Shown here: positions 27,001 through 33,000 of the stretch, piece by piece | Numbering within the stretch: the first letter of the stretch is position 1 | Layout: the number at the start of each line of letters is the position of its first letter | Assembly: GCF_003019035.1 (NCBI RefSeq) | Contig: NZ_CP027447.1 | Strand: one strand, 5' to 3' | Length of the DNA stretch: 64,000 bases | DNA from: Escherichia coli | Lineage (GTDB): Bacteria > Pseudomonadota > Gammaproteobacteria > Enterobacterales > Enterobacteriaceae | Program-made: the position numbers

Positions 27001-30000
27001 AACACTCGCCGCGACGGGTTGAACAAAGCCACCACCGGGCTGACGCAGGGGATTAGCCTGGTCAACCGTGAACTGGCGATGACCCAGCCACTGGTGAAAC
27101 AGGGGGCGGCGAGCAGCGTCGAAGTGCTGCGCCTGCAACGTCAGGCCAATGAACTGGAAAACAAACTCAGCGACGTGCGCACGCAATATTACGTTCAGGC
27201 GCGCGAAGAGTTAGCGAAAGCCAATGCGGAAGTAGAAACCCAGCGTTCGGTGATCCGCGGGCGGGAAGATTCTCTCACCCGGCTCAACTTTACCGCGCCG
27301 GTACGTGGCATTGTTCAGGACATTGACGTCACCACGGTTGGCGGCGTTATTGCCCCCGGTGGTAAACTGATGACCATCGTGCCGCTGGATGAGCAACTGC
27401 TGATCGAGGCAAAAATCTCCCCGCGCGATGTGGCGTTTATCCATCCGGGGCAAAAATCGCTGGTGAAAATAACCGCTTACGACTACTCCATCTACGGCGG
27501 CCTGCCGGGGGAAGTGGCGGTGATATCACCAGACACCGTGCAGGATGAAGTGCGACGCGATGTTTATTACTATCGGGTGTACATTCGCACTTTCAGCAAC
27601 CATCTGGAAAACAAAAGTAAACAGCAGTTTCCGATATTTCCCGGCATGGTGGCGACGGTCGATATCCGCACCGGCAAAAAAAGCGTGCTGGATTATCTGT
27701 TGAAACCCTTTAACAAAGCACAGGAGGCGTTGCGCGAACGATGAACATTAGCGATGTAGCAAAAATTACCGGCCTGACCAGCAAAGCAATCCGCTTCTAT
27801 GAAGAGAAGGGGCTGGTGACGCCGCCGATGCGCAGCGAAAATGGTTATCGAACCTACACGCAGCAGCATCTCAACGAACTGACCTTACTGCGGCAGGCAC
27901 GCCAGGTGGGCTTTAACCTGGAAGAGAGCGGCGAGCTGGTGAATCTGTTTAACGATCCGCAGCGTCACAGTGCCGACGTCAAACGTCGTACGTTGGAGAA
28001 GGTAGCGGAGATCGAACGGCATATCGAAGAACTGCAATCCATGCGCAACCAGCTACTGGCGCTGGCGAATGCCTGCCCCGGTGATGACAGCGCCGACTGC
28101 CCGATTATCGAAAATCTCTCCGGCTGCTGTCATCATCGGGCGGGGTGAAAATCAGTTAATCCCCGTTTGCACCGAAAGAATATGCTGCAAACTTTCTACC
28201 ATAATGCGCCCCGACTGAAATAAGCCTTCCTGGATTTCGTTGTTAACATTCACAGCGTGAACCAGGGAGGCTAATAACACCACTTGCAAGAAGGCAAAAA
28301 TAAACGCACCGATAATCATAATATGCGTCAGGGGGATTTTCCTTTGCTCCTTCATTTTAAATAACCCACAAACTGACCTTCCTTCATTAAGGCGACTTTT
28401 CCCGTGTGGTGATAAACAATGACGTTATAAAGACCTGACTGATAAACAGTGGCATCTTTATTGTCTTCATCAATTGCACATAATGAATCATTGAGATAAG
28501 CAAAGTTCTTACTGCTCATTCTAAAGGTCATGCCAAATCCTTTATAAATGGCTTTCTTTGCCGCCTGGGCATGTTGTGCGGCTTCTGCATTTTTAAATGC
28601 CTGCGCCTCGGATGCACTTAAAATAGCCGTCTGACGCTGCTGTTCTGCGAGATAACAGGTGTCATGGCTGACGCCCTGCGCCTGGCAATCTGCGATGCGG
28701 GAAGTGGGTGAACTACAGCCAGCCAGTAATATAACCGCCAGCAGGGAAAACGATTTAATGGAGCTATTCATCATTGTTAACCTTAAATAATGTGCGGAAA
28801 ATTGCGAATAAGAAATTGCTGTTAAAATTAGAACGAATATCCCACGCCGACACCCGCACCGAAATCAGATTGTGTATCCGCAGAAATACCTGCTTTAAGT
28901 ACCGTATGCGTTCCGGCATTAAAAGATGTTCCTACAGACACCGCAGATTCACCGTTGAACGTTCCCGCTCCCGCTGACACCATCATCACGTCACCGGTTT
29001 TCACCTGTGGTTGTGAGGCGATAGCAATGGCAGATGCAGTTCCCGCATTGGCTTCTTTACGATTGTCCTCAACTTCGTTTTTCAGAGAATCGAAATGGTT
29101 ATTGAGCGTGTTAATTTGTTGGCTGTTATCTGCGACCCGTTTTTGCGTGTTGGTTAACTGTTGCTGCGTTTGTGCGGAATCTTGTCTCAGACTTTCAATT
29201 TGCTCATGTGCCTGGACAGACTTCTGCGCCAGACTTTGCATTTGTTTATCGTATTGAGCCCTTTCTTTTTGCTGTTGTGCTGCCACATCGGTTGTCAGTG
29301 CATTCATTTTCTGCCCTTGTTCCGTGGTAGTGCGCTGATTAGCCTCATTTTGAGCCGCCAGCCTGGCATTAATCATCTCCTGATAATGCGCGGTATTTTG
29401 CGTATCTCCAGTCGCGGCGAGCGTTTTTTGTGTGGCTACGATCTGCGCCTGTTGCTCTGTAATTTGCGTTTGCTGGGCGTCAGTTACCGCAGACTGTCGG
29501 GCGTTGATCATGCTCTGATAACGGGCGGTTGTCTGTACATCACCTGTAGCGGCAACGGTTTTTTGTCCTGCGTCAGGATCTGTCTGGACAGGGGGAGTCT
29601 GAGTGGTATCAGGTGTTTCAGAAGGGATGTAGTGATGTTCAGTCAAATAGGTATACGCAGCGGGGCTGTTGTCTGTGCGTTCTAAAAAGCGGGTAATCTT
29701 CTGCTCAATCTCCGATTGCGACATGCCGGAGTTAATGGCTGAAAGCTCTGTTGCCGCCGCTTCAATGGTATCACCAGCTAAAACAACAGGGCTGGATGTT
29801 GCTGAAATTATGAGTGCCAGTAAAGCTACGTTTACAGTTTTCATTCATTTTCTCTTGTTCAAAATAAGTCGCATTGATGTTTCTATAAGAAACAAATAAT
29901 ATTGCTTTAAGAAATAAACTGCGTTGCAATTTGATCGAAATCTACGCCGCCATTTGTGTGATGTAAAGCGCATTTTTGTCTTGTGTAAGCGTAAACACCA

Positions 30001-33000
30001 CCAATAAGAAACAAAAATAGTTTCTTATATAAATAAAAAAGGAAATTATTTCGTGCTCTTTCAATGTAAAAAAGAGTAAAGACTTGTTTTGATAAGCGAA
30101 ATAAATTCTGTTTCTGGACTAAACGTGAAGCGGTTCCTGATGTGTGCTAAAATGCGTTTCTTTGATAAATCTCAATTTTTAAGAGGTTTACGCCAGGCAG
30201 GAAATTTAAATGAATGAATTTGAGAAGATTTTTAATGAAATGAATCTGGACCGGGCATTGCTACCGATCCTTTTTCGTTCGAACCGGTCGACAGTGTGGA
30301 AGTATTTAAGCGGCGATAGTACGGCTCCTGCCTCTGCCATGTCGCTGATCATGCTGTTGCAGTTGATCCAGAAACGAAACCCCGATCTGTTAGCCGAATG
30401 GTTAACGCTTTCTGATTTCACCATTCCGCCAGAAGTTTACCTGGACCAACCTGATTACTGGAAAGGGTGGGTGTATACCCAACACAAGGTCAATAAAAAC
30501 GTCCTGGAATATCTAAAAAAACACTATCCGGATGAAGACCAAAAAAGTATGGGTAAAGGCCGGGAAGAGTAATTTTGCCTCTACTCGGCTATATGCCGGA
30601 TGCGGCGCAAGCGCCTTATCTGGCCTACGATTCGGGCATATTTTGTAGGCATGATAAGACGCGTCAGCGTCGCATCAGGCGATGACCGCACGGATGATCA
30701 GCGTTATCCCTTCTATCGCAATGACTTCAACATGCGTACCTGCACCGAGATCCTCGCTGGCGCTGACAGGCCATGAACTGTCGCCGACGCGCATATGACC
30801 GCGCCCGTTGACCAGCGGAGATTCCAGCACAAAACGTCGGCCAATCAGCTGCTGCCCGCGCTGGTTTAAATGACTGTCGCTGTGCTTTTGTTCGCGCACC
30901 CGCCGCGACAACCATTTCCACCACAGCCAGGCGGCGAGCAGCGTCAGGATGGCAAACATCACCCCTTGCCACTCCCAACCCAGCGGCACCAGCCAGACCA
31001 CCAGGCCGGTAATCACCGCTGCCACGCCGCTCCACAACAAATAACCATTTCCGCCCAGCATCTCGGCTGCCAGCAGCAACCCGCCGAGACTGAGCCAGAA
31101 AATATGTGGATGAACGACCATTAACTCCATCATGGCTGAGTCCGTTTGTTGGCGCTGTCTTTCACCAGCTCGGCAATCCCGGCAATCGACCCCATCAGGC
31201 TGCTGGCCTCTAATGGCATCATCACTACTTTGCTGTTACTGGAGGAACCGATCTGCTGTAACGCTTCGGTGTATTTCTGTGCGACGAAGTAGTTCACCGC
31301 CTGAATATCGCCGGAGGCAATGGCTTCAGACACCATTTTGGTGGCGCGGGCTTCCGCTTCGGCAGAACGTTCACGCGCTTCGGCCTGTAAGAATGCCGAC
31401 TGACGTTCACCTTCCGCTTTCAGGATTTGCGACTGTTTTTCACCTTCGGCTTTGAGGATTTCCGCCTGACGGATCCCTTCCGCTTCAAGGATGTAAGCGC
31501 GTTTGGTACGTTCCGCTTTCATCTGCGCGTTCATTGAAGAGATAAGCTCTGCCGGTGGGCGCACGTCGCGAATTTCAATACGGGTGACTTTAATCCCCCA
31601 CGGGTTGGTGGCCTCATCGACAATACGCAGCAGGCGTGAGTTGATGCTGTCGCGCTGAGAGAGCATTTCATCAAGTTCCATTGAACCCAGCACGGTACGG
31701 ATGTTAGTCATGGTCAGGTTGATGATCGCCAGCTCCAGATTGCTGACTTCATAAGCGGCGCGCGGGGCATCAATCACCTGAATAAAGCACACGGCGTCGA
31801 TGGTAACGTTGGCGTTATCTTTCGAGATAACTTCCTGGGAAGGGATGTCGAGCACTTGCTCCATCATATTGATCTTGCGACCAATGCGATCCATAAAGGG
31901 CACCACCAGGCTTAGACCTGGCTGTAACGTTTTGGTATAGCGACCAAAACGCTCTACCGTCCATTGATAGCCCTGCGGCACGATTTTGACGCCCGCGCCG
32001 ACAATGACCAGCGCGACAAAAATGAGAATAGGGATAAAGATAAGCATCGGAAAAACCTCCTGTTGTACCGTCCATAATCAGCAAAATTGCTGCTTGATTA
32101 AACAAATTATACCTGATTACTGAAAGAGAGTTCCCCCTTATTCCTGCGAAGGATAAACTGTTTTTAGTAAAAATCAGAAAAAGGGAACAGTGATGCAGGA
32201 AAATAGTCCTTTGCTTCAGCTACAAAACGTAGGATATCTGGCGAGTGATGCGAAGATTCTTAATAACATCAATTTTTCGCTGCGTGCTGGCGAATTTAAG
32301 TTAATTACCGGTCCTTCTGGTTGTGGCAAAAGTACGCTGCTAAAAATAGTTGCTTCATTGATCAGCCCAACCAGCGGAACGTTACTGTTTGAAGGTGAGG
32401 ATGTCAGCACACTAAAGCCAGAAATCTACCGCCAGCAAGTGTCTTACTGCGCCCAGACGCCGACGCTGTTTGGCGATACGGTATACGATAATCTGATCTT
32501 TCCCTGGCAGATCCGTAACCAGCAGCCTGAACCAGCCATTTTTCTCGATTTTCTCGAACGCTTCGCTTTGCCGGACACCATTTTGACGAAAAATATCGCC
32601 GAGCTATCTGGTGGTGAAAAACAACGCATCTCATTGATTCGTAATCTTCAATTTATGCCGAAGGTTTTATTGCTGGATGAAATCACCAGTGCGCTGGATG
32701 AAAGTAATAAACATAACGTTAATGAGATGATCCATCGTTATGTGCACGAGCAAAATATTGCCGTGCTGTGGGTGACACACGATAAAGACGAAATTAATCA
32801 TGCGGATAAGGTGATTACACTGCAACCGCATGCCGGAGAAATGCAGGAAGCACGCTATGAACTCGCATAATATTACTAACGAATCATTGGCACTGGCATT
32901 AATGCTGGTGGTGGTGGCAATCTTAATTAGCCATAAAGAAAAACTGGCGCTGGAGAAAGATATTCTCTGGAGCGTCGGGCGCGCGATAATTCAGCTGATT

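Follow-up and report, generated by a model that had tools for sequence, protein, structure and literature searches.

The gene published as gmrA in Escherichia coli O-island 29 encodes a predicted headless trimeric autotransporter within a conserved envelope cassette

The cueR–ybbJ segment

The genes cueR and ybbJ of Escherichia coli enclose a strain-variable segment, which is described here for a stretch of 64,000 nucleotides (the window) of contig NZ_CP027447.1, assembly GCF_003019035.1. Positions refer to the window unless another sequence is named. The segment (28149..30683) lies between the stop codon of its left neighbour, cueR (27741-28148, plus strand), and the 3' end of its right neighbour, ybbJ (30675-31133, minus strand), and it holds four open reading frames (ORFs) of 338, 140, 67 and 120 amino acids. 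The locus is already known as O-island 29 (OI-29) of strain EDL933, with the genes z0638, z0639 and z0640 (PMC5826968), and as S-loop 43 of strain Sakai, where the autotransporter gene ECs0548 was once annotated as a 'Saa-like protein'. The autotransporter is also already annotated as such by RefSeq, whose names at this locus are 'YadA family autotransporter adhesin', 'lipoprotein' and hypothetical proteins. Two points are new. The first is that the published transcriptional regulator GmrA is identical with this autotransporter. The second is the definition of a conserved cassette, in which the gene of a headless trimeric autotransporter adhesin (TAA) is combined with that of an uncharacterised lipoprotein, in some genera with that of a small membrane protein as well, and with a divergently oriented XRE-like gene next to an array of hexamers.

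In a megablast search of 5426 complete E. coli genomes, 1378 contain the whole segment, O157:H7 among them, and in E. coli the presence of the cassette is all-or-none. K-12-type genomes are devoid of it; there, cueR and ybbJ abut, as the first-pass annotation of this DNA had stated for K-12 (for example in L060), and position 28148 is joined directly to about 30684. The primers used for the published deletion of OI-29 map at 28111-28148 and 30684-30722 of the window. The ORF set proposed in the first pass, namely a 338-residue protein, a lipoprotein with a lipobox, a 67-residue protein with a 4-nt overlap and a divergent 120-residue protein, was found as described. The strain-variable interval was also recognised correctly, with the exception of its right end, which had been placed at 30590 and in fact lies at 30683, the segment ending in a repetitive extragenic palindromic (REP)-like element. 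All four ORFs are under purifying selection, with ratios of non-synonymous to synonymous substitution rates (dN/dS) of 0.02-0.40. Between the window and O157 the ratios are 0.02-0.20, and the ORFs are intact.

The z0639 autotransporter

The longest ORF, z0639 or ECs0548 (28828..29844, minus strand), published as 'GmrA', encodes the precursor of a headless trimeric autotransporter of 338 amino acids that begins MKTVNVALLALIISATSSPVVLAG and ends GVGVGYSF. Residues 1-24 (MKTVNVALLALIISATSSPVVLA, followed by G; 29773..29844, minus strand) form a predicted signal peptide, with Lys2, a hydrophobic core at approximately residues 5-23 and V-L-A before G25. The highest hydropathy window of the whole protein (2.1) starts at residue 8, and homologues in other genera have comparable signal peptides at their N-termini. 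The passenger comprises about 250 residues rich in Q, A and T, with a small cap at the N-terminus and then a Pro/Thr linker. Its stalk contains two tandem repeats of 45 residues (residues 94-183; 29296..29565, minus strand), and 25 of 45 positions are identical between residues 94-138 and 139-183, compared with 14 in the best 40-residue window over 30 shuffles. TRF finds no tandem repeat at the DNA level, so that the repetition is visible in the protein only.

The last 60 residues (279-338; 28831..29010, minus strand) match the whole Pfam model YadA_anchor (1-60 of 60) with an E-value of 2.6e-11. The anchor, the signal peptide and the two repeats of about 45 residues in a Q/T-rich stalk, all proposed in the first pass, are confirmed. 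In a phmmer search, the significant sequence matches of the protein in the Protein Data Bank (PDB) are solely the anchors of AtaA, Hia and YadA, and the alignments with AtaA and Hia reach into the pre-barrel helix (residues 244-278). The passenger gives many weak matches to coiled-coil families, and Pfam provides no match to YadA_head or YadA_stalk, hence no head or neck domain is detected in the protein. The stalk and anchor match a PHROG 'adhesin' family (6.9e-22), and both RefSeq and UniRef list the protein solely under 'YadA family autotransporter adhesin' or 'adhesin'. Related loci supplied 23 ORFs with an anchor, and the last residue of every one is F or W. The mature protein is acidic, with an isoelectric point of 4.9 and a net charge of about -12. 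Because the last 60 residues form a YadA-type anchor, three z0639 chains should build a 12-stranded barrel. The protein is predicted from its sequence, with high confidence, to be a type Vc outer-membrane protein.

With the short coiled-coil TAAs YadA, Eib and Saa, the protein shares a signal peptide, a putative coiled-coil-type stalk, a four-strand anchor and a terminal aromatic residue. It differs from them in having neither head nor neck, in its length of 338 residues and in its N-terminal cap with the Pro/Thr linker, and also in showing no adherence role on HeLa or Caco-2 cells, as judged from the published deletion of OI-29. Close kinship to the phage-borne Eib-type adhesins was considered and rejected, since the 50,697 phage records searched with tblastn yielded no more than 33-42% identity, confined to the C-terminal 33-57% of the protein. 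Other TAAs, such as DsrA and ApiA/Omp100, are about as small or smaller still. The term 'unusually short', applied in the first pass, holds only in a relative sense: no head or stalk model is matched, and the passengers of a global TAA survey average about 1000 residues.

The 338-residue form is represented by more than 1000 database members on more than 1000 contigs, while relatives in sister species are longer (415-579 amino acids). The dN/dS of the autotransporter gene is 0.15-0.20. Between Escherichia species its dN reaches 0.18-0.26, versus 0.004-0.014 for the lipoprotein and the 120-residue protein genes, which means that non-synonymous change is 10-40 times faster than in these neighbours. 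Such a rate would be more typical of a surface protein than of a conserved regulator.

Identity of the published regulator GmrA

Yang et al. (2018) named z0639 'GmrA' and described it as an activator which binds the fliA promoter (PMC5826968). The DNA-binding domain of GmrA in that paper is a CDD prediction. Reviews from 2021 to 2024 repeat the view of GmrA as a regulator, the 2024 review referring to a predicted transcription factor, and in the literature searched, GmrA and the word 'autotransporter' co-occur in two reviews only.

The primers listed in Table S2 of PMC5826968 were mapped onto the O157:H7 chromosome (L001) and onto the window. In O157:H7, the arms used for deletion of gmrA lie at 7122-7159 and 8177-8215 of L001, exactly flanking the RefSeq coding sequence 7160-8176, which is named 'YadA family autotransporter adhesin'. 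On the window, 29845-29883 corresponds to the gmrA R arm, with two mismatches, and 28790-28828 to the gmrA-03 F arm, which belongs to the primer set for orthologues. The z0638 arms flank the lipoprotein gene and the z0640 arms flank the gene of the 120-residue protein. The forward primer for pET28a starts ATGAAAACTGTAAACGTAGCTTTA, encoding MKTVNVAL, the N-terminus of z0639, and the 3xFLAG primer sets the fusion point right after ...GVGYSF. The published GmrA is this autotransporter ORF, signal peptide and barrel included.

This mapping indicates that the protein purified as a 'regulator' was the complete precursor, its signal peptide preceded by a His tag. Because FLAG was fused after GVGYSF, the tag of the chromatin immunoprecipitation (ChIP) construct masks the C-terminal Phe of the β-signal. 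From these tag positions, both the His- and the FLAG-tagged GmrA would be expected to mislocalise. No DNA-binding domain is detected in the protein by Pfam, NCBIfam or PADLOC, in which only sub-threshold coiled-coil look-alikes appear (TMF_DNA_bd with E 0.079, SMC, JetC and LmuB). In effect, one gene, identified as the same by primer mapping, carries two descriptions, that of a DNA-binding activator of fliA in the published work and that of an exported outer-membrane autotransporter as predicted from its sequence.

The lipoprotein and the 67-residue membrane protein

The gene z0638 (28352..28774, minus strand) begins 53 bp downstream of the autotransporter gene on the same strand and encodes a lipoprotein of 140 amino acids with the lipobox LLAG/C. 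The N-terminus of the mature lipoprotein is C-S-S, with Ser at position +2, where Ser, Thr or Val occurs across the family. Because of this serine, the lipoprotein is probably located in the outer membrane, facing the periplasm. An AlphaFold2 model built from a 21-sequence alignment (mean predicted local distance difference test score, pLDDT, of 73) comprises a helical hairpin (residues 23-69), in which Cys40 is invariant and Cys30 is present in at least 90% of the sequences, and a C-terminal eight-stranded β-barrel (residues 75-139, pLDDT about 90). The best fold matches of the model include the PliC/MliC lysozyme inhibitors, Neisseria ACP, the C-domain of NHBA, avidins and an immunity protein of a type VI secretion system. 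At the sequence level, no Pfam match is obtained even at E ≤ 10, MliC included, and no PDB sequence match at all, SadB included. The lipoprotein, the 67-residue and the 120-residue proteins give nothing above threshold in the Pfam, NCBIfam, PHROGs, PADLOC and PDB sequence searches. The matches to TraV, XAC1346 and Ag473 were dismissed, being sub-threshold and driven by the signal peptide. The family is small, with 152 members at E ≤ 0.001 among 1.84 billion cluster representatives in a profile search.

The domains of the lipoprotein are also found in other arrangements. Proteins of 874-1990 amino acids (P0179, P0203, P0205, P0209, P0214 and P0217) contain 5-8 tandem copies matching its C-terminal β domain, and many proteins of about 100-120 amino acids consist of this β domain alone. 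The Cys-hairpin N-domain occurs by itself in lipoproteins of 63-69 amino acids in Aeromonas, Pseudomonas and Buttiauxella.

The third ORF on this strand (28152..28355, minus strand) encodes a single-pass membrane protein of 67 amino acids (RefSeq WP_000664216), and its start overlaps the lipoprotein stop by 4 nt (ATGA, 28352-28355). Its hydropathy peak is 2.65, in the window from residue 14. The motif HA(I/V)NxNNE...QS is conserved in the Escherichia and Pseudocitrobacter cassettes, and the dN/dS of the gene is 0.09-0.40.

The arrangement had been compared in the first pass with SadA/SadB, in which SadB is the dedicated trimeric inner-membrane export lipoprotein of SadA in Salmonella and E. 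coli. The comparison is valid as an analogy. In both systems the TAA gene shares an operon with a small lipoprotein gene, each lipoprotein combines a helical N-terminal part with a C-terminal β domain, both families include stand-alone paralogues (YajI in the case of SadB), and the SadA-SadB locus, like the OI-29 cassette, is deleted in K-12. Homology is not indicated, because z0638 shows no sequence match to SadB and has a different fold; in addition, SadB carries Asp at +2 and is encoded upstream of its TAA, whereas z0638 carries Ser and is encoded downstream. A second comparison is offered by AtaA-TpgA of Acinetobacter, in which the TAA gene is likewise adjoined by a gene for a small envelope protein. 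By analogy with TpgA, z0638 may act at the periplasmic face of the anchor. TpgA is BamE-like/OmpA-like, whereas z0638 has no BamE or OmpA_C domain in Pfam and no NCBIfam match above the cut-off. A 2026 preprint that screened the neighbours of TAA genes reported SadB and TpgA only, plus DUF2827. As the YadA head domain was required in that screen, the headless family would not have been sampled. The z0638 family, which lies directly downstream of headless or short TAAs across the Enterobacterales, is therefore a concrete third candidate for a TAA-specific partner, next to SadB and TpgA, the only ones described.

Conservation of the cassette

Context look-ups, together with a scan of one genome per species, provided 51 loci, whose ORFs were scored with iterated hidden Markov models. 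Homologues of the lipoprotein and of the 120-residue protein are found in Enterobacterales only. Where the lipoprotein has 130 or more amino acids (31 loci), a YadA-anchor gene lies upstream of its gene on the same strand in 19 cases; in the unbiased one-genome-per-species scan this is so in 15 of 27 loci. The gaps are mostly 48-202 bp. YadA-anchor genes are absent from all 24 loci in which no lipoprotein ORF reaches 130 amino acids; these are mostly the N-domain-only forms of 63-69 amino acids from Aeromonas, Pseudomonas, Buttiauxella and Atlantibacter. The 120-residue protein gene is on the opposite strand in all 13 loci that carry it, among them loci of Escherichia, Pseudocitrobacter, Rahnella, Yersinia aleksiciae, Ewingella, Serratia silvae and Symbiopectobacterium, and the 67-residue protein gene is restricted to Escherichia and Pseudocitrobacter. 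The passengers vary widely in length (249-728 amino acids) and in sequence, while the partner proteins are conserved. This joint occurrence across several genera supports a functional unit. The idea of a compact adhesin module, put forward in the first pass, is largely retained for the module, and the role as an adhesin is not supported, the published deletion of OI-29 having left adherence to HeLa and Caco-2 cells unchanged.

An alternative is that the autotransporter is real but the lipoprotein and the 67-residue protein serve an independent envelope function at a shared locus, for instance as a lysozyme or toxin inhibitor or as an immunity-type lipoprotein. In 12 of the 31 loci with a full-length lipoprotein (about 40%), no autotransporter gene is adjacent, which suggests that the lipoprotein is not strictly dependent on the autotransporter. 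The occurrence of its two domains as separate small proteins, and the fold matches to PliC/MliC inhibitors, to Neisseria ACP and to the type VI immunity protein, also agree with such a function. However, YadA-anchor genes number few per genome, so that finding one next to the lipoprotein gene in 15 of 27 species-level loci greatly exceeds chance, and the shared orientation, the short gaps, the all-or-none presence in E. coli and the co-regulated expression all speak for a common role, as does the lack of a Pfam match to MliC. In the published data, the three genes z0638-z0640 are expressed in Dulbecco's modified Eagle medium at 20, 96 and 44 reads per kilobase per million mapped reads (RPKM), the value of the autotransporter gene being 96, and all three are at 0 RPKM in HeLa-attached cells. 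An independent function of the two small proteins is, on balance, rather unlikely, and a cassette acting as a unit is preferred.

Several variants of the cassette were observed. In Pseudocitrobacter (L005-L007 and L009; L003 from P. faecalis), the four-gene cassette is located between qmcA and fetA rather than between cueR and ybbJ. A second Pseudocitrobacter copy, at another place, contains two tandem YadA-anchor genes of 633 and 588-608 amino acids and lies about 1.3 kb from a gene for a large serine recombinase, with small ORFs between them; the proximity of this recombinase gene suggests that the cassette can move. Within E. coli, the autotransporter region of some lineages is about 0.4-0.9 kb longer, which suggests longer or disrupted passenger variants, and E. 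coli strain 48 from deer has 1.1 kb of unannotated DNA between a 349-residue YadA-like coding sequence and the 120-residue protein gene (L061:2710-3812).

In Rahnella, Ewingella and Yersinia aleksiciae (L015:3734-3860, L019, L020, L028 and L022), the autotransporters have a conserved, in-frame N-terminal extension of about 40 amino acids directly before the core of the signal peptide, for example MKAQLTERNTQIIAAYIAGNTNKIELAHYFGVSASTIRRVL, with the pattern ...ERNTQIIAAYIAGNxNKxELAxYFGVSxSTIRRVL.... This extension looks helix-turn-helix (HTH)-like, with weak Pfam matches to CENP-B_N, HTH_28, Sigma70_r4 and GerE (E 0.13-0.6), and it is unlike the known extended signal peptide region (ESPR).

The control region and the divergent gene

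The spacer between the divergent genes (29845..30209, 365 bp) is an AT-rich control region, with a GC content of about 31% versus about 58% in the flanks, and it contains six GTTTCT/AGAAAC hexamers. The expected number is 0.16 from the density in the whole window or 0.30 from Markov resampling, and none of 5000 resamples reaches six. Four of these hexamers build two palindromes, both candidate operators. GTTTCT-ATA-AGAAAC (29879..29893) is located downstream and AGAAAC-N7-GTTTCT (30007..30025) upstream of a sigma-70-like putative promoter of the autotransporter operon, TTTACA-17-TAGATT (29939..29967, minus strand), which was found by a consensus scan. Single copies of GTTTCT occur at 30110 and 30156, the latter (30156-30161) following an extended -10-like element, TGcTAAAAT (30145-30153), upstream of the 120-residue protein gene (30145..30161, plus strand). 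An Rfam search of the spacer gave no non-coding RNA.

The spacer was aligned among the window, O157, Escherichia sp. E1V33, E. whittamii and two Pseudocitrobacter genomes. Three of the hexamer positions do not vary between Escherichia and Pseudocitrobacter, both TTTACA and TAGATT fall inside two invariant blocks, and the extended -10-like element lies within the longest conserved block. The palindromes noticed in the first pass are in this way established as non-random, conserved inverted repeats. Six hexamers are present in Escherichia, 3-5 in Pseudocitrobacter and five in Symbiopectobacterium, and in these genera the 120-residue protein is at least 72% identical. Retention of the array alongside a similar protein is the pattern expected of a co-evolving regulator and operator. 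GTTTCT is not enriched in the cassettes of Rahnella, Yersinia and Ewingella or in the second Pseudocitrobacter copy, which limits the operator idea to the close clade.

The divergent gene z0640 (30210..30572, plus strand) encodes a putative XRE-type HTH regulator of 120 amino acids and has a dN/dS of 0.03-0.06. The AlphaFold2 model contains five helices within residues 1-68 (pLDDT 68). Its top Foldseek matches are all XRE-type HTH proteins, namely HigA2, the P2 C repressor, MqsA-C, controller C-proteins and Aca (probability 0.99, E 0.18). The N-domain of the model superposes on the C-domain of HigA2, on P2 C, on MqsA-C and on the controller C-proteins of restriction-modification systems with a target-normalised template modelling score of up to 0.66. 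By sequence, no HTH family profile of Pfam is matched above threshold. The sub-threshold matches are MqsA_antitoxin (E 0.12, and 0.012 in one homologue) and Xre-like-HTH (0.047), and a profile of the protein matches HigA2 in the PDB at E 0.58. The possible HTH mentioned in the first pass is thus weakly supported, being suggested by the predicted fold with non-significant E-values. As with XRE/Cro regulators, the gene is divergent from its likely target, and repeated palindromic hexamers lie in the spacer; unlike them, the protein has a 50-residue C-terminal extension of low pLDDT. A regulatory role is plausible rather than established.

A proposed type Vc cassette and the motility data

The locus is likely to be a self-contained type Vc cassette, in which an exported autotransporter is combined with the lipoprotein and the 67-residue protein as envelope partners and with a divergent regulator. 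In the proposed mechanism, the z0639 precursor would be exported by the general secretory (Sec) pathway, the β-barrel assembly machinery (BAM) would insert the anchor barrel, and the stalk would be displayed on the cell surface. The lipoprotein and the translationally coupled inner-membrane protein of 67 residues may promote or stabilise autotransporter biogenesis or anchoring, in a manner analogous, not homologous, to SadB and TpgA. The XRE-like protein would bind the GTTTCT array and set the expression of both transcription units. The cassette can thus be regarded as a small system for autotransporter regulation, with a divergent XRE-like gene and six hexamers in a control region of 365 bp.

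A number of observations weigh against this interpretation, most of them from the study in which GmrA was described (PMC5826968). Mutants in gmrA of several pathotypes show reduced motility and reduced expression of fliA and fliC. The motility defect is complemented by gmrA alone, the complementing DNA being gmrA with its upstream spacer (30163 to 29845), and expression of gmrA in K-12 increases motility. Moreover, His6-GmrA bound the fliA promoter in electrophoretic mobility shift assays (0-120 nM, with competition), and ChIP followed by quantitative PCR revealed enrichment with GmrA-3xFLAG. Deletion of OI-29 did not change adherence to HeLa and Caco-2 cells, and deletion of z0638 or z0640 had no motility phenotype, which was the sole phenotype assayed. 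An envelope protein as modelled here leaves the motility phenotype, its complementation and the gain of motility in K-12 unexplained. To these points are added the loci in which a full-length lipoprotein has no autotransporter next to it and the weak support for the HTH fold, a medium-confidence model with non-significant E-values. In addition, the signal peptide was called by inspection and hydropathy, and its cleavage and the trimer are predicted.

The published results, whose message is repeated in the later reviews, would be most directly explained if z0639 were a genuine cytoplasmic activator at the fliA promoter, with the autotransporter features irrelevant or secondary. This is considered very unlikely. 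The cloned ORF holds a signal peptide and a complete YadA anchor, its matches to DNA-binding families are of the coiled-coil false-positive type, the protein is acidic, and the non-synonymous change of its passenger, at 10-40 times that of the neighbours, is unlike that of a conserved regulator. Both tagged constructs, as argued above, would probably have been mis-targeted. If z0639 is an outer-membrane protein, it would influence fliA and motility indirectly, or the reported effect would be an artefact arising from mis-targeted tagged constructs; the authors themselves allow that regulation by GmrA may be indirect (PMC5826968). A variant in which the motility link is both real and direct, with the precursor or an N-terminal fragment moonlighting in a cytoplasmic, DNA-associated role which couples fibre production to fliA, is considered about as unlikely. 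The HTH-like N-terminal extension of the autotransporters of Rahnella, Ewingella and Yersinia aleksiciae would fit such a role.

GmrA is an exported outer-membrane trimeric autotransporter by all the sequence criteria applied, and as a regulator it looks misassigned. The motility mechanism claimed in O157:H7 and in enteropathogenic (EPEC), avian pathogenic (APEC) and neonatal meningitis (NMEC) E. coli needs re-examination, and models of flagellar regulation should not rely on GmrA as a DNA-binding protein.

Origin of the locus

In E. whittamii and Escherichia sp. E1V33, the latter from a cryptic clade, the cassette occupies the same site, with an extra gene of 409 amino acids between the 67-residue protein gene and cueR (L008:5709-6938 in E1V33). 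The product of this gene gave no match in NCBIfam, PHROGs or PADLOC. Among 30 megablast rows taken at even spacing, 4 represent a class of E. coli genomes that has lost the cassette and kept a remnant of the 409-residue gene, a frameshifted and internally deleted pseudogene (L059:1950-2685). In the empty-site genomes, TTAAG comes after the cueR stop codon, a sequence also found where the 409-residue gene ends. YbbJ ends with ...LIIRAVIA in the presence of the cassette (window 30675-30700) versus ...LHIRAVSS at the empty site (L060:1950-1975), and this difference places the deletion junction inside the 3' end of ybbJ. Related cassettes adjoin qmcA, ybbJ and cueR in Pseudocitrobacter, Serratia silvae and Symbiopectobacterium.

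Four independent gains of OI-29 were proposed previously (PMC5826968). Occupation of the same site in E. whittamii and in the cryptic clade, with remnants elsewhere, favours instead an ancestral locus with deletion. On this sequence comparison, an old variable locus eroded by repeated deletion is favoured over four independent acquisitions, and the term 'insertion', used in the first pass, becomes doubtful in view of this and of the cassettes next to qmcA, ybbJ and cueR in other genera. A classic mobile island was rejected, because the cueR stop on one side and the ybbJ 3' end on the other directly border the segment, with no space for an integrase or tRNA gene. No flanking direct repeats were seen at the borders of the segment.

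Repeated deletion raises the question of whether the cassette is a decaying, functionless remnant in E. coli, headless after loss of a head domain. The absence of head and neck domains, the greater length of the relatives in sister species, deletion of the locus in about three quarters of E. coli genomes, the occasional pseudogene state of the neighbouring 409-residue gene and the lack of an adherence phenotype would all be compatible with decay. This possibility is nevertheless hardly credible, because the ORFs are unbroken and, with a dN/dS of 0.02-0.20 between the window and O157, subject to purifying selection, the 338-residue form is maintained in over a thousand database members and contigs, the gene is transcribed (96 RPKM) and its deletion has a phenotype. 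The cassette also bears on why the locus is kept in pathogens of B2, D, E and F type yet deleted in K-12-like lineages.

The REP-like palindromic element at the right border (30594..30680) recurs at a median of six places per complete E. coli genome (megablast) and is triplicated in Escherichia sp. E1V33 (L008:2154-2355). Rfam gives sub-threshold matches to the REP-derived naRNA4 at 30558-30714.

Directly upstream of cueR, the window (24410-27744) carries genes for a type I secretion permease/ATPase of the ATP-binding cassette (ABC) family (720 amino acids) and for an HlyD adaptor (391 amino acids), the stop of the latter overlapping the cueR start by 4 nt. In O157, both genes follow the gene of a giant protein with Ig-like domains, whose coding sequence is about 15.7 kb long. 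K-12-type genomes have ybaT at this place, followed by a frameshifted remnant of 98 bp that overlaps the cueR start, so that the type I secretion system, too, was lost there through deletion.

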